Below, piece by piece: positions 1,682-64,000 of a stretch of 64,000 nucleotides of DNA (position 1 is its first letter; every line of letters begins with the position of its first letter). The stretch is from Rhynchopus sp. YZ270_cl-10 (Eukaryota), in the NCBI GenBank assembly GCA_964035575.1, contig OZ037833.1:558001-622000 (forward strand), in the 5' to 3' direction. The position numbers and the translations under genes were made by a program. Below the pieces are notes generated by a model that saw nothing but the letters and a program-made list of their open reading frames with translations, was not told the origin of the DNA and made no database searches.

Positions 1682-4600
1682 CTATTTTGCCTCTGACACT
1701 TCTGTGAACTTATGGAAGCATAGCAAGCCAACAAAGTGCATCCCAATGAGAATCAAGAACCCTGTTGTGTGATGTGTGACGGAAGAGAAAATTAGAGAAG
1801 AAGTTATTGATGCAAGCAAAGTAGCTGACCAGTGTACGATGTCAGTACCGCATAGAAGTACACAACCCTGCAGCAACCCAAAAATAAAAGAGAAAAATAA
1901 TGCCAATAAAACATTCTTGGTGTGGCCGACGACCCCAAAAAATAGCAGAAAAAGGTAGCGCAAAATACTCAGCCACACCAATAATTCTGATAAAGGATTG
2001 AACGCACCTCTCTCGTGCACACACATCTTTTACCACTATCGTTATAGCGCTGGAACAACGCTGCAAAAATGTGAATCCAAAATCCTCTCTTCTCTTCTAA
2101 GATGAATGCTCTCACACACAGTTTCAGCTTCCACAAAAAAAATAGTAACTCTGATAGGTAAGTAAAAGGAAAAAAGGTTTTTTCGTTGATTGCACAATTA
2201 CCCTGTTTGAGGGGTGATTGGCGACCGTATCTGAGGAACTATTTCTCCTTTAAGCTACGCTTGTAGGAATAAAAATAGTAACTCTGATAGGTAAGTAAAA
2301 GGAAAAAAGGTTTTTTCGTTGATTGCACCCAAACCCCCTAGGGACTGCTCATAGAGCTGAACCACAAAATCCCTCCGATTTGCAGAGGTCTACTTTACAC
2401 TAAAGGTGGGCCAACGATTCACTGAACAAATACACTGACGCGTCCTAATAACGCAGAGATCACTTAACTAACCCAAAAACATTCGTTACACGCGGCCCAT
2501 TGCGCTGCCATGAGTGCCGACATGCTGCCCCGCACCTGGTCGACCTTCGTCGCCTTGTCTGTTCTCGATCAGCTCGGGGCTCCATTCGTCCGTTCGTCCG
2601 TTCAGACTCGTCTTCTCTCAGTTGGGATGGAATCGGTTCGTAACATTCTTCTTGAGGGACCTCCAGCCCGACTCTACAGCACTCGTGATCCCAGAAAGCA
2701 AGCAGCTCCGTATCCCACAACCTCATCCAAACTCCTCCCTAAACGCAGACCCGACCTAGGACAACACACCCTATAAAAAACCCCTCAGGTACATCTTCCG
2801 ACAGTGTACCCGTGCTGGTGGGAGGAGAGCAGTATGTCTCTCTACCATTCAGACATCCGGTATCTCCCGGTTTATAGGCCGAAGTGTAAACGCCAAGAAC
2901 ATCAAACTGCTGCAGGGGTGTACCAAACCAGAGGGTCACACTTCAACTCCAAATTTACGACGTTGCATCTCTCCACAACCTCCGCGTACACTGTCAGCAC
3001 CGGCAAAAACCATCGTTGCGCGTTTGCACTCCTGCAGGGGCAAGCTCCAAACCATCGGAAGGATAAGTATCTATGCGCATCTTGATGCCCCTCTCACCGC
3101 CCAACTTCATCGTGCTCCGCATGTCTTCTTTATCCAGAAGGAATTGCAAAAAAGGCGCTCGTCATCCGTCATCACCCATTTTTCCCTAGACCTACTGATC
3201 ACCTCCGGCATCGTGGGCATCTCCTACCTAGCGGCTGCGTACCAGCAGAGACGAATCAGCAAACCCATGTTTTTCTTGTGCACACCCACGGTGGGTCTCG
3301 AATCCCCGTTTAGCCGTTTAACTCCTCTGGGTTCCTTCCGCATGCACATGACCCTTCCACGAGCCCTCTTCTCCGGTTGCTTCCACCACCTCTCGTCTCG
3401 GAGCTCTTCCAGTCTCCTCCCCACGCTGCGCTGCTGCCCACGAAAGAAGAAACCACTGCATGTACCAGCTGCTCGTACACTGCGTTACATTATTCTGCCT
3501 CCGTCTGGATCCCATAGACTCCACAACGTGGTCTTCCCCTTCTTCTTTGTATTCATTCTGCCTCTTCAGCATACCTGTACATTCTGTTTCTGTGTTTTGT
3601 TTGGCATTGTTATCTTCAGGATAACCTGTAGTTACCTTCAGCATAACCTGTACTAATCTTTAGCATAACCTGTATTTACCTTTAGCATAAACTGTTGTTA
3701 CCTTCAGCATAAACTGATGTTATCTTCAGGATAACCTGGTGTTACCTTCAGCATAAACTGTTGTTATCTTCATAAACTGTTGTTACCCTCAGCATAAACT
3801 GTTGTGTTCTTCCGCATAAACTGTTGTTACCCTTAGCATAAACTGTTGTGTTCTTCCGCATAAACTGTTGTTACCCTTAGCATAAACTGATGTTATCTTC
3901 AGGATAACCTGGTGTTACCTTCAGCATAAACTGTTGTTATCTTCATAAACTGTTGTTACCCTCAGCATAAACTGTTGTGTTCTTCCGCATAAACTGTTGT
4001 TACCCTTAGCATAAACTGTTGTTATCTTCAGCAGAACCGGTATACTCTCAATATTTTGTTAGTGTCGTTTCCTTCCCTTTAAACTGCAACACTCTGATTC
4101 TCAACCCTTCTCAACTCCATCCTCCTTTTCTTTGCATTGAATCCCCCTACTCATCGTTCTTATAATTGTTTTGGTCTGTATAAACTGCAAAAAAGCTCCC
4201 TAGGCACGACAGGGTATCACAGCCTGCAAAAACACCAGTCCCTGCACCAGCCTTCCACAAAACGCACACCGCGGTCTTCTTATCAGCCCTGTGCACCGTT
4301 TATTATATATCCCATTCGTACATCATTTCTATTTTCGTGTCTCTCCCCCTTTATTCTGAGGCACCGATCATCGCGCACAACGTGTGGGTGGTGAGTATGC
4401 GCGACTCTACGTCTTTGTGAAGATGCGGTGACGCTGAAACTCGTGCCTGGTGTTGACCCTGATCACGGTTGCGCAACTTTACTGCGACGGCGGCAGGCAG
4501 AAAATGATCATCATGTCTGTCATCTAACGTGGCCTTGCTTCCTTCCAAAACCGAGGTCTGAAATTCTGCAAACAAAAAACTCCGGCGCTGCCTTCCGGAG

Positions 4601-12080: not shown

Positions 12081-14272
12081 TCAAGAGAAGGGGGCTTTGC
12101 AAGACCAGCAGCATGTGACGCGCGTGTTTTTGACTTGAACCCTGTCAGCACCGCATCGTTTGCAGGCCTTACCGTACTGTACAAGGGTGTGCGGGAGCTT
12201 GCATGGTTTCACTATGGCCTCAATGGGCTTCCGCCAAATTTCTGGTATCTCAATCTGATGGGCGATGTCCCTTCGAGCGTTGGCGGCCTGCACATCTTCC
12301 TCATATGTGTCTAGCGACTGAAGGGGAGGGGGTTTTGAGGTAAGCAAAAGAAAAGTGTGAACAATGGACCCCAGGGTTGAGAAAATTAGAGATTCTTCTC
12401 GGGGTCGGTGTTGTTGGGAAAAAGAGAGAGAGAGAGAAAATTTAACACATACCTGCGCAGTAAGACAGGACTTTTGATCAGGTCCGTCGAGCGTGATCCC
12501 ACCCAATGCCGAAGCCGCTGCGTCGGACTCATCCATTGTCGCAAAGGTGATGCTTCCCTGAAGTGAAAAATAATTAAAATTAGTAGGATCGGGGGGTAGG
12601 TAAGTAAAGTTGTTTTCGTTGATTGCACAAAATCCTCCCCCGGTTTGAGGAATGGTTTGGCGACCGTACTCCGGTAATACTATTTCTCCTTTATTTCTAA
12701 AGCAAGATTTAAGGAATAATAAAATCGGACCTTCAACCCAGATACATACATCCCTCCCCATCTTTGAAAACGAAACAACAAAATAACTGGGCTTTCATGC
12801 TAGGTTTCCTTTACAAAACAAAATACACATACCAGAAACGTTTGTTTGTTGTCTCTGTCCGGAAGCACAGCACAGAAGTGGATGGCACCGAGCGCGTGAG
12901 CCCTGCAGATTCTGATGAGCGTCATCCCGCTTGCACCCTCCGGGAGCCCGCGGATGGTGATGGTACGGTTCGCATAGGAAGGCCACTCCGCAAGGACGCC
13001 GTCGATAGACGCCATCTTCATTTCGTTTAGTTTGAAGTATTTGTCGTCCAGGTCGTTGTTCAGCTTGAACCTCGGCGCTGCGATAGACGGAGCAGGCAAC
13101 ACCGGCAACGCCGGCCCCGTCTCCTCCTCCACCACAATAATCTCCGGCCCCAGACTCGCTTTGAACGACGCACTCACCAACCTCCTCAGATTCCCACCCA
13201 ACAACTCCTTCGGTATTCTAGCATGCTCACATGCCACCCTTCTTGCCGATTCCAACACCGCTTCATCAGACGGACCTAACGTAGGTGGAGCAAAAAGGTC
13301 TATCTCTTCTTCCTCCTCCTCTTCCTTTTCCTGTGACGTATGGGCTTCGGGTTCATATTCCATGTCGTCCTTTTTAGGTTTTGCGAGGAACACAGATCGA
13401 ACGTATTTCTCTTTATTCGTCAGTCTCGTAGGCGCGGCAATAGGGGGCCCGACGGGTAGTGGGGGGTACCGTTCCTCATCCTCGGTTTTCCCATCCTTTG
13501 TCCTGAGGGGGAGCTGACGGAGTTTTAGGTGTCTTAACTTCATTGCGCGGACCTCCTCCCGCATTGTCTCCTGCGCAACGTGAGGAAGCAATTTCGGTTC
13601 ATATTCTGGTCTCTCCTCGCTGGAAGAAGGTGATTGGGACAATCCTTTATATGCAGGAGGAGGGACATGAGAGTCTTCACTGTTGCCTCTCCTCGGAGGT
13701 GAACCTCGCCTGAAACGTGAGTTTCTTTGCCCATCTTCCGCCTTTCGTTTCACACCACGCCTCTCTGGGGATGGAGTATCCACCCTCAACAACTCATTTG
13801 AGCGATGCGCAAAGCAGGGCACGGCACCCCAAGGGACATCGGACCGGGTGGTTCCGAAGGTCTGGATCGCTTCAATCGCATCAGGACGTTCGTAGAAAGA
13901 CACCAACGCCCCTTTTTCGGCGCGAAACGAATTAAAAGCGACCCCCGCAATGTCTCCGAAACGACGAAGATAAGCACGCACCTCGGTGATGGTGGTGCTC
14001 AAGGGAATCCGCGTGAGGGTCACATCATACGTCCCGTTAGGCTGCTCCCCACGATAGGAAGCATCTTTAGTAGCAAGATCTCGCAACTCCCGCTTTGCTT
14101 CCACAATACGTTGGGACCGCCACCGGTTGCCTGAGTGGCCGTGGCCGTTGGTGGAGTAGGTGTTGTTCATTGGTCCATTGGAGCCATCAGAACCATTCAC
14201 ACCATTCCGTGAATCAGCCGGCCTAGGAGGAGGCCCAGAAGGAAGCGGGGGTACAAAGCCCTCAGGCGCCAT
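12081..14272 (-). CDS. Two-RRM RNA-binding protein with C-terminal CxxC...CxxC zinc ribbon; join(12081..12317,12453..12557,12833..14272)
   Basis: RRM1 (VTLTRIPLSTTITEVRAYLRRFGDI...GALVSF). RRM2 is split by a phase-0 intron (ITIRGLPEG...QTFL|GSITFATMDESDAAASAL). C-terminus has CKRC...CWSC. GTATG donors and CAG acceptors are in frame. Confidence 0.8.
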
Positions 14273-14820
14273 ATTTGGGGGGAAAAAAAGAAGGAAATAG
14301 AGTGAGAGAGGGAGGGGGGAGGGAGGGGGGTTCCCCTGTAGGAGGAGTTTGAACAGTGTATCAAGAATGATGTGGTTTTCGTCCCCTGATTTTGCCCCTA
14401 TTCTGAAAATATCGGTTGGACAAAAAAAAATTCTGTGCAATATAGTATGAAATCTGTAGGAAATTCTGCAAAAAAACAAAAACAAAAAATGTCTTTCTAT
14501 GATAATCTATGAACCCTGGCAACCATTACGAAGCCAAATTATGAAACGTCCTCTACTAAGCAACACAACAAACATTGATAGAGGGTAAAAACCCCACCTT
14601 CGCAAAATACACCTATCATGGTGTGGCCGACGACCCCAAAATAGCAGAAAATAGCAGAAAGTAGCACAAAATAGCACCTCCTTTCAGCCGCACCAAAAAA
14701 AAATTCCAGATGCCCAGAATAGCAGAAAAATAGCACAAAAAAAATAGCACCCCCCTTTCCACCATATCAGATCTGTAGTAGTTTTTTACCCCAACCTATG
14801 CTTGTTGTGCTACTGCTTAT

Positions 14821-15339: not shown

Positions 15340-15823
15340 GTCTATAAATTGTTTAGGAAGGGGAAATGAGGAAATGAGGAAAAGAGGAAAAGAGGAAATG
15401 AGAGGGTTCTTTTTTCTAAATAGCGGACCGTTATCTGTTTTTTCTTTTGAGGAGGTGTGAGGAAATCTAAAAAAAAAAGGGTGAGGAGAAAGGAAGGGGT
15501 TGATTTTGGTGTGCTAAATTCCTAATCAGTTTTTCTGGGAACGGTTGGTTCGCAAAAAGGTCTACACGGTGGATTGGCCAAGGCAAAGTAAAGCAAAGTC
15601 ATTGACCACTAAAACTGACTAATACATTTTCCCAGATTGACCGGTCAATGTATTGGTTATATGACCCTGACCAGTCCGCCGTGTACGGTGGTTTTACTTT
15701 TTTTTTTGAAAACTTGGTTGTATTGGTGTAGACACCCTGATGACGAGCTCTACTATTTTTCTTCTTTGTTTTCTTCCCCCCCGTGGTTTTTCTAATCATC
15801 GCAGGCTATCGTTGCAAAAGAGT

Positions 15824-17180: not shown

Positions 17181-18342
17181 CTAGAAAGAAGCGTCACGGG
17201 CACGTCTGGGCGAGCCTTTTCCTGCGGCACCACGGTTGAATTTTTCTTGCGCCGCGCTGAAGCGGGCACGCGAGAGGCGCATCTGGTCGTTCTGGCGCTC
17301 CATCTTGACCTCTTCCTCAATGAGCTCCCGCTCGTCCGCACCGAGGGTAGATTTGCGCTGAGCAGCCTCCGCCGCCTGCGCCTGGAAGCGGTGTATGTCC
17401 TCCGCAAGCGCTGCGTTCTGTGCCTCAAGCGACTCCCTCTCACGCCGCAAATGCGCATCCTGGTCCTGGTTCGCACGCACCTCCTCTTGAATCTGCATGA
17501 TCTGTTTGTTTTTGTTGTTGTTTTTTTGGGGGGCAATGAGGAATTGTTGGAGTGTAGTTGCCACCACACTTAGTGAGAAAACATACCCTCCGTTGGATCT
17601 CCGCTTCTTCAGATGTGTTCCTACCTTTGAAGTACATGCAGTCCACTGTGTTCGGGTAGATCAACCCAAAGTTCTGCCACTCGTCATAGGTCACTTTGCC
17701 GTCTCTGTTGAGGTCCGCCTTGTAGAAAAGCTCGCCGATGGTGTTGGCGGAGAAGTCAAGACCACGCTCACGGAAGGCACGCTCAAAATCGCTGTGGTCG
17801 ATGAACCCACGACGCTGGTGGTCAATCTCCTCAAACACGATACGCACCTTCTCCGCACCAGGCAGGTCGTTCCTCTCTGCGTTCGCCCCAGAGTACCCTT
17901 GCTGCGCCGCTGGAACCGAACTCACCGCGTACGGTGCTGGCTGAGACGCATACTGCTGCTGCTGTGTGTGATGTGGGGGTGGATGAACCTGAGCGACGCT
18001 CACCCCGCCAGACGGTGGTCTCGGGGCCGGCAAATCCTGTTGGGTATCGATTGCCCAAGGTGTCTGAGGTTGAAAGACGTAGATCTGGTCGTATTCGTGC
18101 ATCTGGGTGCTGCTGATCAGGTCCACCCATTTCAGGAGAACGTCGTCATACACCTGAAGCCTGCTAACTCTGATACCCTCAGGCGGGCATTCCGCACCCT
18201 GCGGGCGGAGTGCATGCATTTCATTGGTAAACACCTCCTCAACCTTGCGGGTTAACTCCCCAATCGTCGGAAGTGCGGTGAACGTCAACTCCAAATTCAC
18301 CTTTGAACCAAACATATCCGCGCATACTAACAACGTGAACAT
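17181..18342 (-). CDS. BILBO1: BILBO1-like flagellar pocket collar protein (NTD, EF-hands, coiled coil); join(17181..17501,17587..18342), 358 aa
   Basis: N-terminus ADMFGSKVNLELTF...PTIGELTR...YDDVLLKWVDL...YDQIYVFQP resembles trypanosome BILBO1-NTD. EF-hands include DLNRDGKVTYDE. An 85-nt phase-0 intron precedes the coiled-coil exon. Confidence 0.85.
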
Positions 18343-19271: not shown

Positions 19272-19726
19272 AAAAATTTAAAATCAACGGAAGAAAAAGT
19301 TGGGGGAAAGTTTTTTTTTTTTTTGATCGGTTTAGTGTAGCTGCCATTCAGACAGTCGCTATCCAGTTTTTTGTTTTGTTTTTTGCAAAGCGGCTCGCGG
19401 GCTTTGTACAAACATTCTTTCATTTTTTTTTTTTTTCCAAAGTAAAAAAAAAATCAACAAAAAAAGAAAAAAAGAAAAATATGCTGCAAACAAATGAAAG
19501 TTGAAATACAAAGCCAAAAAAAAACAGTGTATCTGCAAACCCGAACCCAACAAACAACACGTGTGTGGTGCCTACACGTTTGTCAAATTTTTGAAGAGAA
19601 AAGAAAAAAGAAAAAAAAAAAAATATCGAAAATGAAAGAGCAAGCGTTTACAAGGCCCCATAACACAGTACGCACGCATACTCCCCACAAAAGAAGAAAA
19701 AAAGAGAAATATTCAATTCATCCCAC

Positions 19727-20022
19727 TCTGTTGATTCTAAAAACGTAAAAATCGCGAAAACGGGAAAGGTGGGGAATTTGAATGAAAGTTGTTGTTTTTG
19801 CTGTGTGCTCTTTTTGTTTTGGTGGTCTTTAAAAATGTACTATAACCCGAAACGGGAAAGGTGGGGGAGGGTTGAAATATTGAACGCCTTCCCCACCCGC
19901 AAGAAAATAGCACAGCAAAAGCACCCCCTTTCAGCCACACCATCTGTTGATTCTGAAAACGTAAAAATCGCGAAAACGGGAAGTGGGGAAGGGTTGAAAT
20001 ATTGAACGCTTTCCCACCCGCA
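19727..20022. repeat. Local duplications containing family F and H motifs
   Basis: tctgttgattct...gaaaacgggaa at about 19727 and 19943; gggttgaaatattgaacgc...cccacccgcaa at about 19869 and 19991. Confidence 0.75.
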
Positions 20023-21146
20023 AACCAGATCACACTGTGTACAAAGGTTTGGGTTTGTATAGGGTGGGTTCTACTTCTTATAAAAAAACCTTTTTTTTTT
20101 TTTTTCGAAAAAAAAAAAATATAAAAATTTCTCTCCAGAGATTGAACATTACCAAAGAAAAACCTATGATTGTCATCCTCACATGTTGTGTTTTTTTGCT
20201 TGAGAATTTGAAGAAGAAAAAAAAGTCCGGAAGAATGAGAGGTGAAGCCCCTATTACGGATTACTCCACCCCACCAATTTTTTTAAAAGTTTTTTTTTTT
20301 TTGACAAAAATAATTGGCGAAAGGTAGTCATCGTGACAAAAGTCCATTCCCAAAAGAGGGTGTTTACATAGGTGAGTCAGCACCCCCTAAAGGCAAGACC
20401 GTCTGTATAACAACTACACAAAAAAGCCAGAGTATCAAAAAAAAAAGAAGAAACAAGCCCATTGACTGATCGATTGAAAGATACGAACAGGATGTTTTTA
20501 CTGTGGGTAAAATTTGAGAATGATTTATTTGAAAAACAGTTTTGTGGCTGATTTTTTTTTGTCGCATTTTTTCTTTGAACCACCTAAATTAGCAGGGTGT
20601 TGGGAGGCGTTGGGAGGGGCTGCTATTTTTTTTGGAATTCAGGTGGTCAAAATAAAAAATGTGTTCTTTTAGATCGTCTTCAGAGGGTTTGGGTGTTATT
20701 TTTTTGGACCCTTTTTTAAAAAAGGAATAAAAAAAAGTTGAAGCAAATATGCTCAATATAAAAATGTTGCTTAAAACACACAGCCCTCGCGAGACAAATG
20801 TACCTTGGCGAATGACCTTAGCCTGGCCTGCTTTGTTTGCCTTTAAAAAACGATTCGTTCTTTTGGGGAAAATCTGAAACGGAGGATAAAAAATACTCCG
20901 TATTTTCTTTTAGTCTTTGGGGGGGAGGGAGTAAAATAAAAAAGGGGGGTTTTTTTTTGCACAAATAAAAACAATATAGAGATAGATTGCGGGGTTGAAG
21001 GAAAATATGTCGGCGCGCGATGGAGTGGGAGCTCACGGCGAGAAAGGGGTGGAGGAGGGGGTTTGAAAGTTTTGTTTGTTTGTTTGTTTTTTTGTTGTTT
21101 TTTTATTTTTGCGAAAGGGGTGGAGGGGGTGTGTTATCAAAAGCTA

Positions 21147-21325: not shown

Positions 21326-23209
21326 TAGTGGCAAACGTCATTTAAAAAAAAACCCCCCCAAAAAAAATGGCGTGAATAGTGTTTCTGACTATATCCACTC
21401 ATACCCTCCAAAAACCGTCCCAGGCCCCGAGTTTCCCCTTGATTAGAGAGAATCGTAAGCCTCGTGCTTGGTCGCTACAAAAAGGAGGGGGTTTGCGGGC
21501 TCAAAAAAAAAAATAATAATAATAATAATAAGTCGCTCTGATTTGCCTTAGGGGGTGTGGCTTTTGTATCTAGTTTGTTTTCTTGATCGTTTTTTTTTCC
21601 CTTTTTTCTGTCGTTAAGTCAGTCGAACCACAAAACTGCACTTCCGCGCTGTGAATCGGTTCTTTTGTTTCAATGTTTGTTTCGTTCTTTTTTGCGTTGT
21701 TTTATTTATTGGTTTTTTTTATTTTTTTGCTATTAGGGAATGCGAATGTCCCTCTGAGTTTTATTTTTTATTTTTTTGATAAATTGTCGGATTAGTGTAG
21801 TTGCCTTGTGTTGCCACAGTTTTGTGCAAATCTCCACTTTCACCACTTTTTTTGAAATACAAAAGCCCTCTCGAGTGTACCTTGGTACGTGACCGGTGCA
21901 GTCTTACATCCATTTCGTGGTTTGCATCTGATATCCCCTCGCTAAAGAAAAATAGAAGAAGAAGAAGAAGAAGAAGAAGAAGAAGAAGAAGAAGACAGGA
22001 GAAACAGGTAAGATGACCAAGCTTCATCTTTGCTTCAGTATAAAAAAAAAACTGACATTGTCAGACATAATGAGTTACGTTCTGTTAGTTTGCTTCCCTT
22101 TTGTGTGTATTTCTAGGTCTATATCTGAGCACAACACGGATCTCTTCAACAGAATGTTCGGACAATTTGTGTGCTATGCTTATTGATTTGCAAGAGGTAC
22201 ACGACTGTGAAGTAAATGAATTGCCTTGTGGTATTCCATTGGTGATGTCACCGTGTAAGCCAACGGTGAAACTACAAAGACAAACCACAAAATCAAATCA
22301 GTTACTTCATTGTCGTCACAAAGACAGCAGAATGCAAAAACCACCGTTCATACGGTAGAGAGAACATCCAAGAGAGAACAACGGTGAAGTGCATGATTTC
22401 ATTGACTTGAGTCTTACAACGGTGAAACCCACAAAGTAAAACCACAAAGTCAAGGTCATTTACTTCACTGTCGTATAAAAGTATGTCCATGCTGCGATAA
22501 GACCGATTGGTGCTAATTGTACAAAACTTCAGACACACGGGGAAACAACACCCAACAATTTTTTTCTTCTTCGAGGTGTACAAAAACAATATTGCGCTGA
22601 ACTTTAGCTGAGTCACCTTATAAGAGGGAAAGCATTAGATTCATATACTTTCAGTTCACAGAATTGAAAGTATTTGAGAGGGTCACCACATGCACCCTTT
22701 CTTTTTGGAAAGCAAAAAAAGGTAGAAGGAGGAAGGGAAAAGAGGGTTTTCCCCGAAGGAAAAAAAAAACACACAGCACAACAAAAAAAGAGAGGAAGAC
22801 AAAGCATTTGAAAGATATGTGATTATTTGATTGCGTATAATCTAAAAACCCTCCAAGGTTAGGATGTAGGAACGGCACACAACATTTTTTAGAAGATGGA
22901 CTTAAGCCTCTCGGGATTAGTCACCTTGAATACAAAAAGAAAAGAAAAAAAAGCTCTCCCCAAACCATTCCATTGTGCCACCTGCTTGCCCCATTTGAAA
23001 AGAAGAAAAAATACCGTTGATAGACGAATGTGCCGCATGCGTACACATCTGAAAAAAGATGGAGTTTTTTTTTTGTACAAAATAATCGGAATGAACCTGA
23101 ACTGAGTTTCCAAAACACACAATTTTCAATCTTTTTTTTTCTCCTTTTTTTTTTTTGCAGGATCCGAGTGGATAGCTGCAGATCGTTCAAATTGTCTACA
23201 ATAGCATTA

Positions 23210-41300: not shown

Positions 41301-44048
41301 CTTGTCACCATGACATGTCATATTGGTCCTGGACCATGTTGTGGAAGCATGGCATACCTGACATGTGGCGGGTGGAGCTCCAGCTCACGTCGCCCATCTA
41401 CCTCGATGACCACACGGGCAATCTCCGCATGAAGGCTGCAGCTGGAGTACCACGAGGACACAGCACGCCACGCCGCCTCTGAGAGCACTTCGTAGCAGTC
41501 TGGGCCAGAGCGGTCGCCTCCCCACTGTTGGGGTGTGATGATTTTTTTTGTTGTGTCGACAATCACTTCGCTCCAAAAACGGAACAAAGTTCTGTACTCA
41601 AAGTTGGCCGAAGCCTATGTACTGCAGAAGGTATAGACGTCAGCCGTCCTGAACCCTAAAGAGCAACTTTTATTTCTTCACAGAATTTCACTATTTTCCC
41701 AGGAGTGCGTGCGTGAAGGGTGTTGGTAGGTTATGGTACATGAGTACCACCCTGGTTGTAAAGAAGCCAAGGGGGGGAGGGACTTAGAAGAGAGCTATTA
41801 AGTAGGGGGGTGGGCAGGGGCGTGTAACGGAGGGGGGAAGGGTTGAATCACTAAGTCACACAGCTATACAAAAACCCACAAAGACCTCATATTCGTTCCC
41901 GGAACTCCACTCGTAGCATGAGCCATTTGTGGAGACCGTCACACCACTCAGACATCCTCACATCGTCGGCCTCCTGCACTTTCATCCGCTCGCACACCAT
42001 CATAAGCGTGGGGGGGCGCCGCATAGCAAAATCTCGCAACACTGTGTGTACTGTCGGGGGAGAGGGGTAGACCTTCTCTATGTCTGCGAAACGTGATAGG
42101 GCACGTCGGTGTGCTGGCGAATTGCACAACAAAACGTGCTCGGCTGTGGCAAGACCGTCGCACTGGGGAATCGCACACTTGGCCTTGGTACTACGCTGCA
42201 GTACCGCACGCCTCGCGATGGCCTGCATGATGTCACAACACCCTGGGATGTACATCAGACGGCGCAAGTTCTGTCGCTTTGTGCACTCCTGTGGGCATTG
42301 TTCCCGTATCCTCGTAGCAATCCCTGCCTCGCGATTCATCGCTTTTACCTGCCTGATGAAATGCATCGGACTGGACACTTTTTTTTTTTTTTTTTTTTTT
42401 TTTTGTGATTTTCAAAAGAAATTCAACAATAGTTCCTACATACATCTAGCCCTGTCTTGAGTTTGCCGTTTTCATCAAGGAGCCCTTGGTTGTCCAGCAG
42501 AGGTACCGCATGCGCGACAACTAAAGGAGACTGCTGCGACCACTGCCGCGAGGCCAGCTCCATGTCGTCGTCTGGATCGCCACCTGAAAAGGCACCGAGC
42601 CCTGTATCCTCCTCCACCAGCGCAGTGATGCTGTCTCTATAGTGCGGTCGTGTCGGCGAAAACGCGGATGGCCCACCACTGAGAAGCGCTTCCCAAGCAT
42701 CGTACCACACTTTGTCCACCAGATACCATACGGTTCCCACTTCACCTAATGACCGCAATGGGTGAAATGTTGGTACATTCAGCCGGCCTACTACCTGCAG
42801 CTCTTCTGCGGGAGTCGCTGGGCGGATGTTCAGGTCAATCAAAACGCATTTCCAAACCGTTGCGACGAATTCTTCTCCTAGCGCGCTTTGCTTCGCCCAA
42901 TGCGAAAAGCGTTCCAACGAGACGCGGGGAGGCGGGGTAGGGGTGCTCTTCTCCTCCTTCCCAAAGAGGCTTTCCACAAGCCCTGCGGTGCGTTGTTTGT
43001 TGTGCTCCGCATCTTGCCCAGCCTCGACCACCCACAACGCATCCACCAGCTCCGTGAACGCGGCACGTCCAAGCCCCCCTACCTCGGTTGTATCAAAAAG
43101 CTGAAAGCAAAACTGCACCTTCTCCTCCTGATCACCATGAGAAGACACTGCTACAGCAGATAGCAGGTCTTTAACAGAAACGCACTCTGTGTGGTCAGGG
43201 TCCAATACACGGAACAGCTCTCGACAGAGAGACTGTGGGAGGGATGATAAAGCGTCCGAAAAGGTCTTTCTGTCGAGCGTTCCTGTCGCGGAGCCTTCTT
43301 GGAGCTTTTTGTGAATCTTCAGGATTTCGTCGACTTTGCCTTGCGGGAGGCCGGTCATGGAGGCGAGAGAACGTGCCTTCTCTTCTTCGTACGATGCCAT
43401 CGCTCCTTCAGAAGAGGTTAACAACTGCACATGGTGTGGACGCAGCCCTTCTTGGCCTAGCATGTCTTCAAATTCGTACATCCAGACAAAAAGCGAAAGT
43501 GGTTCTGTAGGGTGTTCGGACACCATCCGCAGGGCCCAGGCGCTGAAGGCCTCTGGGGTGGTAAAAGCGGCGTTCTCTTCTAAGGCAGAGAGCAGCGGTT
43601 TGCCTTCGTCGGGGAAGAGCACGACGAGGCGTCGGAGGTGTGCGTAGGGTATTGTGTGCGCATCGGTGCAGTATGCACAGAAAACGAATTTGACACGCTC
43701 TGCCGCAGTTCCGGCACGGAGAACCGCCAACCCCCGAATGAACTCTTCCAAGGTAAGTCCGTCAGTTTTTGTTGATGTGCTTGGAAGAGAAGCGGAACAG
43801 CGTTTAAAGGCGCAGTATAAGCATCGTGTTAACTGCTCAGGGCAGTGCGGGAGGATGGACCCCACGAAGCGTGCCTGGAACACAGCGTACCCCATGCGAG
43901 CCTCCCCGCGCGTCAGCAGACGGAAGTCGCTTTCCACAATGTGCAGCGTGGAGCGGATCCGTTCGCATGCAGTCGCATAGTCGATGATCCCCTCTGTGAT
44001 GAATGAGGCGCTTGTATTCGTGTCGGCATTGTTGGTGTCACCACTCAT
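38353..44048 (-). CDS. Ubiquitin-specific protease, USP32-like (EF-hands, DUSP, UBL, C19 domain, CaaX); join(38353..41185,41358..41524,42444..44048), about 1534 aa
   Basis: GLQNLANTCYLNS, QQDANDF, LIIQLKRF, AVINHEG...GHYYSY...MND. DUSP is split over introns with matching phases (LKTGLD|WGG..., HVR|LFRG). C-terminal CTMM. Confidence 0.9.
41887..42366 (-). CDS. Same-strand ORF nested in USP intron 1, with a CCHC-like motif
   Basis: 159-codon GC-balanced ORF starting 4 nt after a poly-A/CAG acceptor; contains CAIPQC...AEHVLLC. Confidence 0.45.
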   Translation of the reverse strand: MHFIRQVKAMNREAGIATRIREQCPQECTKRQNLRRLMYIPGCCDIMQAIARRAVLQRSTKAKCAIPQCDGLATAEHVLLCNSPAHRRALSRFADIEKVYPSPPTVHTVLRDFAMRRPPTLMMVCERMKVQEADDVRMSEWCDGLHKWLMLRVEFRERI

Positions 44049-45111
44049 GTTGTGCCTGGAGGGTTGAGGGGTTGATTTAAAATAGCAATTAAATTCTGGT
44101 ATTTTTCAGGCACGATGCTGTGCCTGGAGGGGGGGATGGGGGATGAGGTGGGTGAAGGTCTAATCTTGAAGCTTCCGCATATTGAGCGGTGTTTGAGGGT
44201 GTGCGACTCTAATATTTACCATCAAGTCTGTCCTTGGAAAGGTCCTGCGATTGTAAGGGAAGAATAAGAGTTGACTTGAAATACAAAGCCCTCTCGTGAA
44301 CAGTGTACCTTTGGTACAAATGACCTGGCTGTACCGGGGGTGGACACCCAATCATGCAGTCCTACATACATTGTCGTGGTATACATGAAATCTGATGGTG
44401 CAGTATGTTGACTCTGATTGCGACAGTGTTTAGCTTTTTTATGTTGAGATAGGCGGTATTACCAGGAGAAAGCCTAGAGAGATGAGAACCTAGAACAGAG
44501 AACAGAGAGCGATTAGAAAAAGAACCTTTTTTTTTTTTCCAGATATGTTTTTTTTTTTTGCGAGCGGATCTTCAGAACAGTCGCAAAAAAAGAAAAGGGT
44601 GTCGATTGAGGGCTTTTTTCCAGGCCTTTTGCTAACTTTGGGATTTTCCCCCTGAATGGCATGATGGTCAAAAAAAAATAATTTCCTGGAAAAAAAGTAC
44701 ATTCCGAGCTTTCCCACCTGGTAAAAGCGGTCGTCGCGCGCTTCGCGCGCGCCTCCCTGCCAGCCACAGGGTGGAGAGGCGAAGGGTCAGCTTTGCAAGA
44801 TAACAAAAACGAAATCTAATCCTTTATTAACGGTGCTTGGTCTGCGCCTTACGTACACTAACCGTACAAAATCAATACGTCTGCCAGAAGCAGGGGCTGT
44901 TGCAACGGTTGGGTCACTTTGAAATAACAATGTCAAATTTTTGCAGCTTGGGTCAAGTTGCATTTCTGGCTGCAAAATGCAAGGGAATTTTTTTAGATAT
45001 TGTAAAATGGCACCGTAGGCAGGAAGAAAATAGCGTACAGCGCGAGCGAAGCGAGCGGATTTTTTTTGAGGTATACCTCCGCGAGCGCAGCGAGCAGAAA
45101 AATTTTAAGGT

Positions 45112-49386: not shown

Positions 49387-50279
49387 AAAACAGCACTAAA
49401 AAAAAGCGCCAAAAAAAAATCAGAAAAAGATGCAAAATAGCTAGGTAGGGGGTAGATCAGTTCTTTTTTTGGGATTTCGGGGTTTTTTTTTGTTGAGTTT
49501 TTTGGGGGTTTTATTTCAAAAAAAAAAGGGGTGATCCGACAGCAAATAGCAGCCTCGTGGACCCCCCCCCCCCCCCCCCCCCCCTCATACACCCCACAGA
49601 GGAAGACAACACTACAAAATACGGAACGGACAAAAAAAAGGTTTATAAGATGATCCTAAGCCTCGCGGTGCTTTTGGTCACCTTTTTTGTTGTAAAAAAA
49701 GACCCCCTCCTCAAAGAAAAATGAACAGATTGAAAGCTACTAAAAAAAATGTTGATAGACGGATATGCCTAGCGTGCATACACATCAGAAAAAACAGAAA
49801 ACTCTAGATTTTGGATAATATTTTTTTTTTTTTTGCATAAAAAGCACAACACAGCCCACGCAACACCTCGTGTTTAAAAAAAGCTTGCCCTGCTCCTAAA
49901 AAGCAATACTTTACGGCAACACCACTCATCCCGACGGTGCTAATTTTTATATAGCTGGCCTCATGTCGGGCTTGCCTGGTTGGGGCTTCACCCCAAGCCA
50001 AAAGTCGTAACAAGGTTGCTCTGTAGGTGAACCTGCAGCAGGATATCATTCCCAAAGTCGGCTCTGTTGTTTACACAGACTGATAAATGGTCATTAGTAA
50101 AAGGCAAAGAATTTTCCCAAAGCTCCGCGCTTTTGGCGTCCCTGTTAGTAGCGCTGTCTACTGCAGGCGACGGTGTTTGTTGTGTTACTGTAAAAATAAA
50201 ATACTGAACGAAAAAAGGAAGATCGTCAACCTTCTTGGGGCTTTTTTGTAGCAGTGGGAAAGATAAAAAAAAGCTGCTA

Positions 50280-50314
<35 letters not shown>

Positions 50315-50817
50315 AATTTCAAACAAAAAAAACAAAAAAAATGTAGTGCAGCTAGCGTAGGCAAAGACAGTCTTCACTATCCATACAAACACATTGTCGG
50401 TTCTTCACCGTGGACCAGAACCCTACACAGACGTGGGCAACGTAGGAGCTCCGCATAACCTGCTTCAAAAATAACGCCCACATTTGGAGACAACATCCCA
50501 CAGCACATCTATCTATTTTACGCCCCATAACCCCTATGCAAACGTCTCTATTTTCTATTTTTTTCAAAAAAAAAACCCCCCCACCTTCCCCAAAAAATCC
50601 AAAAAAGAGACGAGGTGCAGTGCAAAAAAAAAAAAAAAAAAATGCCTTCTAGGACAACAGGCACGGGCACCGGCTTTTGTACCGTGGGTGGACACCCCAA
50701 CCATGCCGTCCTACATCTATTTCGTGGTTTACATCTGAATAAAAATGACACTACAATACCACAACAAAATGCGATTTTTTTTTTTGTGGAAGCCCCCCCT
50801 TTTTTAACAAATCACCC

Positions 50818-56226: not shown

Positions 56227-56261
<35 letters not shown>

Positions 56262-56761: not shown

Positions 56762-59700
56762 TGTGTGGTGTGTTGTGTTGTGTGTTGTGTGTGGGTGACC
56801 CTTCTTACTGTCTCCCTCTTGTTTTTTGCTTCTTTTATTCCCCAAAGGAACGCCTGAGAAGGGGGGGGGGGATTTAAATGGGTTTTCATAAAGTTACCAC
56901 CTGATTTTTACCCCGCGGATAGGCGCGGATAGGTCCGGATATGGCCGGATAGTGCAAGGATAGACAGGATAGGGCCAAAAGCCGGTTTTTTTTTTTGGGG
57001 GTAAAATCAGGTGGAGTTATTAAAAAATGCAAAAATAGAAAACGACATTTCAGGATATGACAGTTGAAGCATAAACGAAAGACTGTGTTTATTCACTGAG
57101 TGAGGTGTACGTGGAAAACCATAATCCGCTAAAAAGCGCGCACCATCCGTCGTTTTTCCATTTCTATTTGACAATGCTTTGATTATTCAAAAAAATACAC
57201 CTCCCCTCTTTTTTTTTTCTCCTCCATAAAAACGAGCCTTTTTTTTGAAGATCTTTTTCAAACGGAGAGATCTTCTGTCTACAAAAATTTAGGGGTGTGG
57301 GGATGGGTGGGGGAGTACTTGACACTACTTTGACTCGCGAGAGAGAGACAAAGTATAAATTTAAGATTTTTTTTATTTAGAAAATCTGTTGCTTTTTTTT
57401 GGTCTTCACTTTTGATTTTGCATTTTATTTACTTTTTTTTGTGTTATCGACCATTGCCCCTATTAGTAGGGGTTTTCTGAGGTGACAGATTTCAACGTTA
57501 ATTCGATTAGGGAATACGGATACGGAGGAATGCATTATGACTAGCATTTACCTACCATTTGTGAACAACGGGAGGGTGGAGGGACCCCGATTTCTCTCAA
57601 AAAAAAATTGGTACAAAGAAAAGCAAAAAAGGGGAATATGTTTGGGGAATAGGCAAAGCGTTCTGATGTATTTATTACCATTTATAACGCAAAGAAAAAA
57701 GATCGGGTTTTTTGTTTGTGCGCTAAGCCGGAAAAGCTCAAAGCTGAAAAAAAATTGTGTTGACCTGAAGTACGGTTGTTGGTTAATTGAGTACTCCAAA
57801 GAAAACAAGCAAGCTTCTGTCTTTTTCAATCCGTTTTGCCCGCAGCGCTGCTTCTCCAATCTTTTTTAGAATTGACAACAAGTTGTTTTATCAAAAATGA
57901 GAAAGTTTTCGATAAGATGAACGTAAGCCTCACTGTGCTTAGTTATCTTGATATTCAGAGGAAATGTTCTGGATCAAGCCTCTCGTGCCTTGCACACATC
58001 GAGAACAAAAAATGGTTGTTAGATGACCCTGAGCTTCATGTTCGTGGTCACCTACATTTCACCTTTGACATAAACGGAGGTTGGTTAGGAGAGAAAACGG
58101 GGGGGTGGGGTGGGGGGGATAATCTAAGTGAAAAAGGGGAGGGAAAGGAGGGGGGGGGAAAAAACGAGCTTCGTCTGGAGAAAAAAGGGGGGGTTTTTTT
58201 TTTTTAAATGGTACAGATCGAGCTCTGTTGGTTCTAAAACAGAAAATGAAATAAAAAGGCATGGAAGAAAATGTATCTAAATATGGGTGTGAGAAGGGTT
58301 TTTTGTTGACAATTTTGGGGAGAGGGGAGGGGGAATTTTGAATAAAACACTATTTTGTTTGAAAACTTGGTTGTATTAGTGTAGCCACCCTAGAGTGTCC
58401 TCCACTATACTAAACACTACTTTTTTTTGTTGCTGCATCGTACAATTACCCACCAAAGAAAGAGGTGGGGGGGTTTGTACTCAGAATGTAACCCTGAAGG
58501 GGGTGGGGGACCAGTGGACCAGGGACTCCGCTAGGTACTAAAGTTCTGTTGATTGTCAACAGAACTTTTTGAAAATGGGGAAAAAAAAAAAAAAAAAAAA
58601 AGTTCTGCTGAGTGGTTCAGACCCGTTCTACCTGTCAAAAAAGCTCAGGAGAAGAAGATATGGAGAGGTGAGTGCTCAAACGTCCCAAAAAAGTCAAAAT
58701 CGGGCGTTGAAAAAAAAAAAAGTTGCGTACCGTGCGCCTGCGGCGCAAGCATGTACCCCACCACGTGGACCATCAACAGAACATTTTCAAAATCGGAAAT
58801 CCTAGCGGAGAGCCTGCAGTAGACTTTAAAAAAAAAAAAAACATAATATAGGACAAATCCAATGAGGGTTTATGGACTGTCCCTTATTGCATCGACAATT
58901 ACCTAAGGAACCCATACAATGTTTGAATCCGTTTTTTTTTTTTTTGTTGTGCTCGGAAAGGTGAAACCATTGATTTTTTCAGCATATTACTCAGGGAAAT
59001 GAGGGAGAAATCAGGTCAAAAAGCGCGGGCAAACGGCGGGAGTAACTATTGACTCTCTCTTGAGGAAGCTAAACTGCCTTCTAATAATGACGCGCATGAA
59101 TGGACCCAATGAGATTCGTTCTTCTTGCCCCCCTCATCAGGCAGTATTACCTGCCCACAAGGGCACAAGGAAAAAAGCCCTCCATTACTTCCCTTTGAAG
59201 ATACGATGTTTTTTTTTTGCCTTCTCTGGCTACTATATTTTCTCAAAAAAGAAAGGTTTATAAGATGAACCTAAGCCTCTCGTGATTAGTCACCTTAAAA
59301 AAAAGACAAAAAAAAAAATGTGAGTAATCCATCTGCGGATGAAGGTTTTGTGTGAAGAAGTAGGTTCAACAGATAGTTGGTGTTTCAGGGGAAGAAAAAG
59401 AGAACACGAAAACAGTGCACAACACGAAATAGTCTCCTCCACAAGCTTCAGCGTGACTGTATCTTGAATTGCCACTAATACATTCAAAAAGAAAGCCTTT
59501 GTTAGATGTACGCGCCTCTCGTGCAGACACACACACATCAAGCTTTCTTTTTCAAAAAAAATCAACAAACCTGACAGTCAGTACCAAATCACCTACAGTT
59601 TAGAATACTAATTTGAGAAGCACTAATGATGCTAGTCTAAATGCTAGGCTAAACGAATAAATCCCCCAAAGGGTCATTCTGGGACAGCAAAAGAAAAGAA

Positions 59701-60381
59701 GAAAATAAAAAAAACTAACTAAAACAGAAAGAACGGTATGGGAATGGGGTATGTTTAACTATTTTTTTTGACACAAAAATGAAAAAGAAGGGGGAAAAAA
59801 CAAAGCAGAAAGGGCGACGGTGATGTGAGACCATGATCACACCCCCCTCTATTTTTCTTTTTCTTCTTCTTCTCCTCTTTTTTCCTTTTTCTTTGGGAAA
59901 TTTGTTGGATTAGTGTAGCTGCCATTGAGACAGTCTTCACTATGCGTGTGCTTTGTTTTTTTTTTGTTTTTTGTTGTTTCGACAATCGCCTACGAACCCA
60001 TTTGGGAATTCTTTTTTTTTTCCTTTTTTTTTTTTTTTTTTGGATATTTGACAACTTGCCACAAAAACGCGCGAGATGCACACTTTGTTAGGCTATCTGT
60101 TTTTTTTTTTTTCTACAGTTTTGATTTTTATTTAGTTCTTTTTTTCTGAAAATAATTGACAAACGTACATTGTTGCCTCGCAGAGTATGCGGTGAAACCT
60201 GCACGGAATTTTTTTTTACTAGAATCAAAAGTCTTTTGCTCAGACGAACCCCCCACACCCCCATTCATACTGAGACAAACCACAAAGACTTTACAAGCCA
60301 CCACCATATTCTTCTCTTTCCCCCCTAATAGGGCCTATACTCTGTTTCCCAGCTCATTGGAAATTAATACGCATTTTGCGT

Positions 60382-61924: not shown

Positions 61925-62040
61925 AGGGAAGGGGGAAAGAGAAGGGGGGGAGGGGGAGGGGGAAAGAGAAGGGGGGGAGGGGGAGGGGGAAAGAGAAGGG
62001 GGGGAGGGGGAGGGGGAAAGAGAAGGGGGGGAGGGGGGGG
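61925..62040. repeat. 27-bp purine/pyrimidine tandem repeat forming the pyrimidine tract upstream of the Kelch gene
   Basis: gggggaaagagaagggggggaggggga repeated about 4 times. Confidence 0.8.
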
Positions 62041-64000
62041 TTTGTTTCCTAGAGAGGGGGTTTTTTTTGTGGAGGGGTGTGAGTATGAAGAAAAAAATGG
62101 GGCCTTTTTTTATTAAAACTAATTAGAAAACACAACCTGTGTAGATATACAAATTTGTAAAAGGGGCAGAATTTTTTGTGGTTCGTCATTATCTTATTGT
62201 CTTGTTTGTCAGGACGAACAGTCAAAAAAAAAGGTCCCTTTTTTGTTGTCATTAGAAAAATTTATCGTGCGATGAATTTTCGTTTGATGTTTGGCTTGAG
62301 GTTTGAGGGAAGGACAGATGCACGATAACCATGTCACCCGGTTAACTTAAAAAAAACAAGATTATTTTTTGCATGATTTTACATGCAAAAATCCTATTAT
62401 TTAGAATATATTACCGGGTTACAGGGTCAACGTGTGTTGTATTTAGGGTTTGGAGGGGAAGGTGAGCCAAGGGTGGCAATGAACATGCCGTATTTGGCTT
62501 GGGATAAACAGCAAATAAATAAAGCTTTTTGTAAAGATAAACCACCCCTCTGCGCATTGATATACCTTAACACAAAAGGAAACGATCAATTTCATACACT
62601 TTCCATTCAAAAGAAGAGAAAGCACACAAAAGGATGGAAACGAAAAAAAAAAGAAAAAAAAAGAGGAAAAAAAGACAAAGAATGGGTAGTTGAAACGTGC
62701 TAAAAACGCAGCTCGGTTGTGCTCATACCAAGGGTGGGGTGGGAGGTAAAGGGATGGCAAAGTCTAACAGAACCCACGGTCTAAACACGTTTCGGATTGA
62801 GATTTGAGTATGGAAAGCAAAATATGTCGGTTTTTTTGCTTTTTTTTGAATGAAATTTGTCGAAAAAAATATTGTGGTGAATAGCTGGCTCTTGTGTTGC
62901 CACACAACTCTCCATTTGCCACCTTTTAAATATTTTTTTTTTTTTGAAAAACTTGACTGTTCCTTTTTTAGGAAATTTTTAGGCAGAGCATGCACGGTCC
63001 TGGAGGCTTCAAGAAAATGGAGTCTGCGGGGCTAAAGAGGAAGTTGCCTTTCCTAAACGTACACACAACTGGAAAAAAAGGGGAAGGTGTCGTCACTGCG
63101 ATTGACCTTCAAGTAACTCGAGCCAATGCTGTCTGGGTAAAAAAAAAGGGGTGGGAGGCTGAGCCAAATAACGTTCTGATGACAAATCAATTTCCCATTT
63201 CTTTGGAACATTTTTTTTCTAATAAACAAAGGGTCGCGCTTGAGATTGAAATTAGGTGAAGTGTTATTTTTTTTCCTCTCTCCCTCACCCTCTTTCGTGC
63301 GCAACTTATTGTTCACAGAATCGATCCACAAAATTGGTACTGCCGATTTAAAGAAACAAGAAAAAGAAAAGAGAACCAACGGGTCTGCTGGGGGGAAAGT
63401 GAATTTGATAGTGCAAAACGCCTCTGGGACGCAGGGCACAAAAAAGAAAAAAACAGAAAAATAGAGTATGTGCTGCTTCTCATGTACATACAAAAGGGGG
63501 GTTTGAACAAATGGTATTGTCAGGTGTGCCTCTTCGTGCACAACACATCTTTTTAAAAGTACAACCCATATTATTCCATTTGAGATCGGGGTGGGGCGGG
63601 AAAACTTCCCGGGGGCGGTAAAGGGTGGGGGGGTATTACAGTGAACACTTTTACTATTTTACAAATGAGAGTTGGGGGGGAAAATAATAGCCCTGTTTGT
63701 CCCCCTCCCCTGCCTTCCGTTCAGCTTTCACGTCCACAGGGTTGTGTAACTGTTTCGTGGAAACAAAAGTAGCAGGAAGGGAGGAGGGGGTGACGGGCGA
63801 AGGCTATATTTTTCTTCTTCCTTTTTTTTTCTCTCAAAAACTTGTTTTGTATTAGTACAAACACCCCAAAGGATGAGCTCTAGCAGTTTCGAAAGAGCTT
63901 TTTCCTCCCACTGTAACCTGCGATGTAGCACCACGCTGGATGATAGGGTCACATGATCAGTTCATCATGATGGGTTGCATGATGACGGGGGTGTCGTTAC

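Follow-up and report, generated by a model that had tools for sequence, protein, structure and literature searches.

Introduction

The closest described counterparts of the repeats reported here are SIDER1 and SIDER2, elements of the ingi/L1Tc clade in Leishmania. They are non-coding and interspersed, lie in euglenozoan polycistronic-type gene clusters, are transcribed within intergenic regions and 3' untranslated regions (UTRs), and are about 4-fold enriched in sense orientation, mainly in 3' UTRs (accessible text of PMC2689281). Diplonema papillatum has polycistronic-type clusters and long 3' UTRs, together with elements of the long interspersed nuclear element (LINE) type and genes for RNA interference (RNAi), as described in the accessible part of PMC10161547. 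Here, we analyzed a 64,000-nucleotide stretch of Rhynchopus sp. YZ270_cl-10 (contig OZ037833.1, positions 558,001 to 622,000; hereafter the window), in which short hairpin-forming repeats share the placement and sense enrichment of SIDERs and, in families B and B2 only, an A-rich tail. These repeats are real and apparently undescribed, and they resemble short, sense-oriented retroposon-like repeats, with SIDERs closest in placement and orientation. A preliminary description of the window had presented them as an undescribed, strand-polarized and transcribed set that could represent splicing signals, intron-encoded small RNAs, or analogues of SIDERs. Polarity and transcription are supported by our data, and the last of the three options is our best reading, with domestication as a possibility.

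Several features distinguish the copies from SIDERs. They are 30–124 nt long, whereas SIDER2 has a median of 529 bp and a range of 44–690 (PMC11520807, in its accessible part), an overlap with a small minority class only. At least 11 families have a shared 3' hairpin design, and copies also occur in cis-introns. Their strand ratio is 54:1, compared with approximately 4:1 and antisense-enriched spacers in SIDERs (PMC2689281). Sense orientation, which marks SIDERs in 3' UTRs, is seen in 54 of 55 copies; that the copies downstream of Rab14 and of the gene with RNA recognition motifs (RRM) lie in UTRs is deduced from unstranded contigs. Most copies (median 46 nt) are too short for the 79-nt ingi/L1Tc 5' signature of SIDERs (only families A and D reach at least 79 nt), and no HDV-like (hepatitis delta virus) ribozyme was found in Rfam scans of the window.

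Short interspersed elements (SINEs) with LINE-derived 3' stem-loops (L2, CR1, or RTE partners) are likewise short and high in copy number, with a conserved 3' hairpin plus short tail, A-/T-rich flanks, and truncation. The copies differ from them in lacking a tRNA, 5S, or 7SL head, a B box, an excess of target-site duplications (TSDs), and a demonstrated LINE partner, and in their extreme strand bias; the RTE insertion signature behind this comparison is that of PMC6007223 (accessible part). The H/ACA-like (AGA-box) snoRNAs of trypanosomatids and Euglena are of similar size, are arranged in head-to-tail clusters, and resemble families B, E, and H in having one hairpin with an internal loop. In these snoRNAs, the AGA box directly follows stem I, 3 nt from the 3' end (PMC2613932, accessible part), whereas AGA fell in the tail window of only 2 of 46 copies here; the copies also have no Rfam match, are dispersed in very many copies, and are retained in long transcripts. 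Miniature inverted-repeat transposable elements (MITEs), present in the window as hAT- and PIF-like types, are short, non-coding, self-complementary, and high in copy number. However, the window's MITEs have terminal inverted repeats (TIRs), TSDs, and mixed orientation, while the hairpin copies have internal imperfect stems, a one-sided unpaired tail, and a single orientation.

Searches for a known identity returned little. Rfam gave two small-subunit rRNA fragments and chance hairpin matches only; in two element-rich regions scanned at E ≤ 10, nothing attained the gathering score, and ARAGORN found no tRNA in the window. An exact 26-nt pattern from family B had 0 matches in JGI metagenomes, and a scan for Rab14 in 4 of 64 parts of that collection gave 80 loci (best identity 68%), none diplonemid-like. 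Full-text searches of the literature gave no description of such repeats, although the CA-rich intron-motif logos of PMC12621601 and the repeat catalogue of PMC10161547 may overlap with them; seven supplement tables of the latter hold no hairpin or stem-loop entry, and the accessible part of PMC13598402 contains no repeat analysis.

Results

Catalogue and orientation of the copies

Both strands were searched with nhmmer from manually chosen seeds, and the reversed window served as the null. We found 54 minus-strand copies in 12 families (30–124 nt, median 46 nt) and one plus-strand copy of family E, 55 in total (Table 1), where about 50 copies of 35–120 nt in some seven families had been counted by eye. 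Matches with E > 0.02 and those within coding sequence were removed before counting, and a plus-strand B match at 22506 from an iterative nhmmer run was dropped, as it was absent from later nhmmer and covariance searches. Family labels are our own; our family E is apparently family F of the preliminary description. Minus-strand copies number 4 (A), 6 (B), 6 (B2), 10 (C), 6 (D), 4 (E), 7 (F), 1 (H), 2 (I), 3 (K), 3 (L), and 2 (M), which makes at least 11 multi-copy families, with H the single-copy one within the window. Together, they occupy 2976 of ~27,100 host non-coding bases, about a tenth. Identity within families is 80–97% for B and 55–86% for C. Families C and F are detected by each other's covariance models and therefore have a common ancestry or design. 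Further islands at 8585–8665, 11890–11935, 7575, and 11389 are single in the window and highly repeated in sequencing-read contigs; judging by these, there are more families than the 12 catalogued.

The minus strand, on which 54 of the 55 copies lie, is the strand of all modelled host genes in the window. All 11 multi-copy families keep to it with a lone exception, one E copy, although copies within a family are not independent. Since the nhmmer seeds all came from one strand, orientation was re-tested without seeds by blastn of the masked non-coding DNA against itself, at a threshold where ~2 chance pairs are expected. This gave 39 same-orientation edges (families D, C, B, B2, L, K, A, and I) and 1 opposite edge (the E copy), while clusters of TIR transposons in the same comparison had edges of mixed orientation. 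Covariance models run on both strands placed 16 of 16 matches for C and 11 of 11 for F on the minus strand (6 and 5 of them, respectively, outside the seed); for B, 16 of 19 matches were minus and the 3 plus matches had E values of 0.2–1.1. The claim that each family has one orientation relative to the gene strand, bar one copy, is thus borne out. As all host genes in the window are on one strand, gene strand is not separable from chromosome or replication polarity. Random insertion cannot give 54:1, and the asymmetry of T-tracts (16% vs. 13%) is too small; consequently, some filter is needed.

Recurrence and transcription

Five public sequencing runs contain the region, and contigs of four of them (X1, X3, X4, and X5) were compared with window positions 4100–14400 (10.3 kb). 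Runs X1, X3, and X4 read through introns and are DNA-like. Run X5 is not on record as RNA, but its spliced joins make it likely RNA. Its contig 27 joins 11885–12317 to 12832–14329 with 104 letters between them, which equals the modelled 105-nt middle exon minus one shared base, and contig 23, which leaves the genome at the MFS donor, carries 21 extra letters at the likely spliced-leader (SL) acceptor near 7367. Contigs 25–27, which are unstranded, span H (to 8553), E, C, and another repeat at 11890 with no gap in between, and intergenic copies are therefore retained within long RNA. This RNA region is probably 3' UTR, and the likely-RNA contigs cover copies downstream of both Rab14 and the RRM gene.

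Many copies are present at other loci. In each run, 17–65 contigs end loose at a shared B, E, A, or H boundary with unrelated flanks, and in run X1, the summed contig depth at elements is 1e5–1.6e6 vs. ~100 in single-copy flanks, a depth that is not a copy number. A figure of tens of thousands of copies is only an extrapolation from window density. Joints between elements were same-strand in 13 of 13 cases among the joints listed (there are 107 further), and the families are therefore chained co-oriented at other loci too.

Loops, tails, and ends

Families C, D, and F have in common the stem-closed loop C-ACGAGAG-G. The design proposed earlier for C, D, E, and F, a GAGG loop followed by a TCAAC-type tail, is borne out in part (GAGG in 19 of 27 of their copies, tail in 16 of 27), and neither word alone has a sense bias in bulk host non-coding DNA: TCAAC occurs 42 times on the minus and 36 times on the plus strand, and GAGG is commoner on plus (117 vs. 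181). In the same DNA, only CACGAGAG is one-sided, with a minus-to-plus ratio of 7:0. A U-tract had been described as following the copies. For families C–M, a T-tract indeed lies 3' of 20 of 32 copies (16% background), while B and B2 sit in A-tracts instead: of 11 copies, 10 have one downstream and 9 have one upstream (13% background). An A-rich 3' tail follows 10 of 11 B/B2 copies vs. 2 of 32 in C–M. The word ATTGCAC, which we take to be a U1A site, was dropped as a candidate as it has no strand bias (6 vs. 5).

Direct repeats of at least 7 nt flank 4 of 46 copies, compared with 1.5 in shuffles (mean 1.87 vs. 1.48 ± 0.36), which is no TSD excess in a test that excludes homopolymer TSDs by design. 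The copies accordingly differ, as had been stated, from the transposons of the window, whose MITEs and hAT element have 8-bp TSDs. The 3' part alone is present in D 20767, D 37286, and B 17538, and the 5' part alone in D 50678. Decayed D and E copies lie at 19504 and 17102; their loops are now poly-T (19504) or a GA repeat/microsatellite (17102), and both still have the 3' arm and TTTCAAC.

RNA structure

For 36 of 46 copies, the sense strand folds better than the antisense when each is set against dinucleotide shuffles (mean z of −1.13 for sense and −0.42 for antisense; copies are not independent), although family A folds better antisense and family D no better than shuffles. The argument that stems use G-U pairs working on one strand only is weaker than first stated. 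It fits D and F (G-U 13 vs. A-C 2), where two G-U-majority pairs are retained in 5 of 5 D copies, but B is balanced (5 vs. 4) and C reversed (2 vs. 8). Overall, a strand-symmetric stem finder, noisy in that its median score was 16.75 vs. 14–15 in controls, counted G-T 75 vs. A-C 82, and consensus pairs with a Watson–Crick majority gave G-U 20 vs. A-C 14 (p = 0.39).

Covariation was likewise found in part. It exceeds shuffles in B/B2 (2/500, double-changed cells), mostly between the subfamilies, where relatedness can produce the same signal, and it does not in C (253–291/500) or F (195–469/500). B and B2 differ by compensatory changes; family C tolerates changes that break pairs and has one G-U/A-U pair retained in 10 of 10 copies. 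RNAalifold returned a weak consensus for F and D and none for C or for B/B2 with flanks.

Genes, introns, and position of the copies

Eight GT-AG introns were modelled, in the MFS transporter gene, Rab14 (both from homologues and frame), the RRM gene (two), and the BILBO1-like, kelch, and USP (two) genes. Those of the BILBO1-like, kelch, and USP genes rest on frame only, and for the second USP intron, two models fit almost equally well. The best matches in EukProt records are 80–91% identical for Rab14 and 57–69% for MFS, some tagged Sspe, Hpha, or Rhum, and a BILBO1_N domain is present among the window genes, which makes the host diplonemid-like. Gene models of relatives (P0003, P0006, P0008, and P0124) break off or continue through at positions that match the Rab14 and MFS introns, so these introns predate the species. 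Homologue pairs (P0006/P0124 and P0008/P0126) suggest that the Rab14–MFS linkage is kept in relatives.

As had been noted from the sequence, copies lie in introns of MFS, Rab14, RRM, and BILBO1: eight of 54 in these four of the eight modelled introns. The other 46 of 54 are outside modelled introns. From copy to next AG, the distance is variable, and upstream donors are few. In 7 of 8 introns, branch-like yUnAy words separate from the copies are closer to the acceptor, by a count that includes two acceptor positions since revised; the A-bearing introns of MFS and RRM are among the seven. The 3' ends of the Rab14, BILBO1, kelch, and MFS introns have an A-/CA-rich tract before CAG instead of a pyrimidine tract. 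Such A-/CA-rich ends are published for some Diplonemidae, with which the GTATG donors and A-rich intron ends of the window agree (accessible part of PMC12621601).

Table 1. Repeat copies and copy-bearing introns in the window.
Feature	Coordinates	Strand	Position or remark	Basis
Family A	2174..2270	-	MFS intron; 98 nt identical with 5892 copy	nhmmer
Family A, 3' fragment	2306..2335	-	MFS intron	nhmmer
Family A	5892..5987	-	close to MFS intron donor	nhmmer, read contigs
Family A	12605..12721	-	RRM intron 1	nhmmer, read contigs
Family B	10546..10612	-	most of 119-nt Rab14 intron; A-tail	nhmmer, covariance model
Family B, 3' fragment	17538..17568	-	BILBO1-like intron	nhmmer
Family B	21776..21841	-	intergenic	nhmmer, self-blastn, covariance model
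Family B	24188..24254	-	A-tail interrupted by TIR element	nhmmer, self-blastn
Family B	34410..34478	-	downstream of open reading frame 34556-35062	nhmmer, self-blastn, covariance model
Family B	37554..37620	-	downstream of USP gene	nhmmer, self-blastn, covariance model
Family B2	15706..15756	-		nhmmer, self-blastn, covariance model
Family B2	19322..19365	-		nhmmer, self-blastn, covariance model
Family B2	37637..37685	-	adjoins B copy	nhmmer, covariance model
Family B2	58359..58410	-		nhmmer, self-blastn, covariance model
Family B2	59894..59945	-		nhmmer, self-blastn, covariance model
Family B2	63836..63887	-	past the end of the set as first described	nhmmer, covariance model
Family C	8710..8753	-		nhmmer, covariance model
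Family C	9872..9915	-	within likely-RNA contig 26	nhmmer, covariance model
Family C	22886..22929	-		nhmmer, self-blastn, covariance model
Family C	25668..25712	-		nhmmer, covariance model
Family C	26239..26282	-		nhmmer, self-blastn, covariance model
Family C	37925..37971	-		nhmmer, self-blastn, covariance model
Family C	49639..49684	-		nhmmer, self-blastn, covariance model
Family C	57906..57951	-		nhmmer, self-blastn, covariance model
Family C	58012..58056	-		nhmmer, covariance models
Family C	59254..59297	-		nhmmer, self-blastn, covariance models
Family D	20767..20819	-	3' part only	nhmmer, self-blastn
Family D	21850..21934	-	internal deletion	nhmmer, self-blastn
Family D	37286..37357	-	5'-truncated	nhmmer, self-blastn
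Family D	38150..38247	-	5' part diverged	nhmmer, self-blastn
Family D	44272..44395	-	longest (~124 nt), several hairpins	nhmmer, self-blastn, folding
Family D	50678..50743	-	5' part only	nhmmer, self-blastn
Family E	7425..7470	-	~60 nt upstream of likely SL acceptor of MFS	nhmmer, read contigs
Family E	9795..9851	-	within likely-RNA contig 26	nhmmer
Family E	11503..11558	-	upstream of Rab14	nhmmer, read contigs
Family E	36965..37009	-	diverged	nhmmer (E = 0.012)
Family E	25216..25260	+	opposite orientation; repeat-rich block	nhmmer, self-blastn
Family F	1990..2029	-	MFS intron	nhmmer, covariance model
Family F	9400..9440	-		nhmmer, covariance model
Family F	23012..23052	-		nhmmer, covariance model
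Family F	49748..49789	-		nhmmer, covariance model
Family F	57965..57999	-	diverged	nhmmer, covariance model
Family F	59497..59540	-		nhmmer, covariance models
Family F	63513..63551	-		nhmmer, covariance model
Family H	8493..8560	-	lone in window, highly repeated in read contigs	nhmmer
Family I	11727..11763	-		nhmmer, self-blastn
Family I	62683..62725	-		nhmmer, self-blastn
Family K	1913..1980	-	MFS intron	nhmmer, self-blastn
Family K	14614..14695	-		nhmmer, self-blastn
Family K, 5' fragment	19902..19942	-		nhmmer, self-blastn
Family L	22635..22670	-	near-palindromic, orientation less sure	nhmmer, self-blastn
Family L	33123..33164	-		nhmmer, self-blastn
Family L	62590..62628	-		nhmmer, self-blastn
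Family M	19864..19904	-	local tandem duplication	nhmmer, self-blastn
Family M	19986..20024	-	local tandem duplication	nhmmer, self-blastn
MFS intron	1762..6025	-	GT-AG, 4.26 kb, five copies	homologue exons, 433-aa frame; likely-RNA contig leaves genome at donor
Rab14 intron	10515..10633	-	GT-AG, one B copy	homologue exons, 206-aa frame
RRM-gene intron 1	12558..12832	-	one A copy	missing from likely-RNA contig 27; frame
BILBO1-like intron	17502..17586	-	B fragment	GT-AG and frame only

Other repeats in the window

A hAT-type DNA transposon at 53502–56227 has short TIRs, an 8-bp TSD, and a plus-strand DUF659 transposase in two overlapping frames (53767–55332 and 55295–55717). A 740-bp hAT-type MITE is present in three copies (15826–16563, 45760–46506, and 48635–49386) that are 94–99.6% alike, each with its own 8-bp TSD. 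A TIR element at 23210–24179 has nested inverted repeats and an A/T target of 3 bp. It interrupts the A-tail that belongs to B 24188, which makes this B copy the older of the two. The MFS intron contains a repeated insert (2143–5992; depth 5–8x single copy) that carries a 298-codon plus-strand open reading frame (ORF) and a 22-nt minisatellite; family A sequence, duplicated perfectly over 98 nt, borders it on both sides. Rfam placed 18S rRNA fragments in non-coding DNA at 1473–1610 (minus) and 49927–50041 (plus), the former adjoining a 53-nt local duplication (1350–1402/1500–1552). A plus-strand ORF of 135 codons without a Pfam match (35329–35736) diverges from the minus-strand ORF at 34556–35062 and, if real, would make a short strand switch.

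Discussion

We tentatively favor, while stopping short of calling it probable, the explanation that these co-oriented interspersed hairpin repeats, with at least 11 multi-copy families in introns and transcribed intergenic DNA, are miniature non-autonomous retroposons: SIDER analogues, not SIDERs. Copies would travel as passengers in polycistronic host transcripts, which would make a promoter of their own unnecessary. A non-LTR (long terminal repeat) reverse transcriptase acting in trans would recognize the sense-strand 3' hairpin, with its CACGAGAG-like loop, plus the tail, and would paste copies into A/T tracts. Antisense insertions would be purged as they pair with abundant sense copies and elicit RNAi or disturb processing, and such a double-stranded RNA purge is plausible because D. 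papillatum encodes RNAi components (PMC10161547). A subset has probably been co-opted as UTR or intron elements, as with Leishmania SIDERs, and most copies would decay. The spread of ages, sharp shared ends, A-tails of B/B2, 3'-only fragments, and decayed copies all fit miniature retroposons. The A-tracts on both sides of B/B2 would follow if A-tailed copies had inserted at A-rich sites, and compensatory change between, not within, subfamilies is the pattern of structure retained in master copies and lost after insertion.

A minus-strand ORF fragment at 41890..42363, lying in sense in the first USP intron, is zf-RVT-like and could be the C-terminal part of a non-LTR retrotransposon ORF; its nearest named Atlas cluster has zf-RVT in 25% of members (score 0.92), and there is no Pfam hit. 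The region 41890–42404 (minus) may be a 5'-truncated LINE fragment, with a CCHC-like motif and a 27-nt A-tract before it. As a lead, this LINE-like fragment is a candidate source of the copying machinery.

Several observations weigh against a retroposon origin. No convincing 3' end is common to the copies and the LINE-like fragment, the one LINE candidate compared: in 19 tests, the lowest p values were 0.003, from a low-complexity match of M, and 0.007, from D. TSDs are not in excess over shuffled flanks, although homopolymer TSDs are invisible to that test, and no empty site or presence/absence polymorphism appeared across the four runs and 10.3 kb among the matches listed. Families C, D, E, F, and H end in sense-strand T-tracts, not A-tails (20/32), and D 50678 retains the 5' part alone. 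By general box consensus patterns, a perfect B box is present in 1 of 46 copies, which is chance level, and A-box-like words are confined to A and, on the antisense strand, to B (4 of 5) and I (2 of 2). Moreover, 54:1 is far beyond the SIDER bias and does not come from random insertion alone; the antisense purge is a proposal.

The main rival explanation, conceivable if on balance unlikely, is that the copies are host-selected RNA-binding modules whose hairpin loop and 3' tail would be bound by an SR-type (SRSF7/SRSF3-like) or U1-70K-like protein. Long UTRs and introns would be marked by this protein so that they are exported, stabilized, or shielded from premature polyadenylation, with copies homogenized by gene conversion or duplication and no selfish element involved. 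On one and the same strand, differing stems display a common loop and tail, CACGAGAG included, the copies are kept in likely-RNA contigs and fill a tenth of the host non-coding DNA, and the better sense folding and the G-U counts of D and F point the same way. SRSF7 motifs are listed as UCAACA and ACGAGAGA[C/U] (accessible part of PMC9022966), and the loop resembles the trypanosome U1-70K site, AUCACGAA in a hairpin loop (accessible part of PMC4041458). However, these apparent matches are short, come from mammalian proteins, and were picked out post hoc; TCAAC has no bulk strand bias, the overall G-U test is negative, family A folds better antisense, some copies are decayed, and copy numbers are uneven between genes. 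Transcription-linked mutation bias could imitate a G-U excess, which also counts against such modules. This account is compatible with retroposons, and both may hold. A bolder version, which we consider unlikely, is an RNA code that spans the genome of diplonemids. Modules numbering in the tens of thousands, with different stems, one CACGAGAG-like loop, and one UCAAC tail, would be pasted strand-specifically into polycistronic precursors. A protein of the SR or U1-70K-like type, once recruited, would keep long U/A-rich UTRs and introns from being polyadenylated prematurely or would license them for export, and the modules would spread in a transcription-coupled manner unlike ordinary SINE insertion.

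The remaining accounts seem improbable to differing degrees. Small stable RNAs, H/ACA-like or of a new class, might be cut from introns and polycistronic spacers, which we think improbable. Size and single-hairpin shape overlap with trypanosome H/ACA-like RNAs of 57–91 nt (PMC2613932), the head-to-tail chains with short spacers at other loci recall snoRNA clusters, and B/B2 covary; yet AGA is scarce in the tails of copies whose median is 46 nt, Rfam gave no snoRNA, snRNA, ribozyme, or tRNA match, the copies remain within long likely-RNA contigs, and guide RNAs need no mass of near-identical copies. The intron-encoded small-RNA option is thus left without an AGA box or Rfam support. A signal for cis- or trans-splicing, made of hairpin, branch point, and pyrimidine tract, is very doubtful. 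The B copy of the Rab14 intron, the B fragment in BILBO1, and the E copy ~60 nt ahead of the likely MFS acceptor speak for it, as do the occurrence of YTRAY in just 13–16% of introns in three Diplonemidae and the CA-rich intron motifs of some species (PMC12621601). On the other side, with 46 of 54 copies non-intronic, 4 of 8 introns without a copy, the next AG at no fixed distance, few upstream donors, yUnAy words nearer the acceptor, and likely-RNA contigs that traverse intergenic copies unspliced, a general role of this kind is unlikely, and the splicing option does not survive as such; local co-option could still account for the two intronic B cases (Rab14 and BILBO1) and for the E copy ahead of the MFS acceptor. 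Equally doubtful are DNA-level elements, hairpins that an HUH enzyme would mobilize in single-stranded form and that the replication strand would orient; they would be similar to REP/PATE or Helentron hairpins. A hairpin with a short conserved terminal word, T-rich flanks, and no TSD would suit them, and gene and replication strand are inseparable in one window, but no HUH transposase was found among the 19+10 ORFs scanned, B/B2 have A-tails, and the copies avoid hand-defined transposon blocks, an observation that is partly circular.

Diplonemids are abundant marine eukaryotes with apparently post-transcriptional control and unusually long 3' UTRs of unexplained content (accessible part of PMC10161547), and the co-oriented modules are concrete, deletable candidates for UTR regulators. 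If selfish, they would be among the smallest retroposon-like elements, with an orientation filter far stronger than that of SIDERs. Should they prove to be host signals, they would amount to a new structured RNA code for polycistronic processing.

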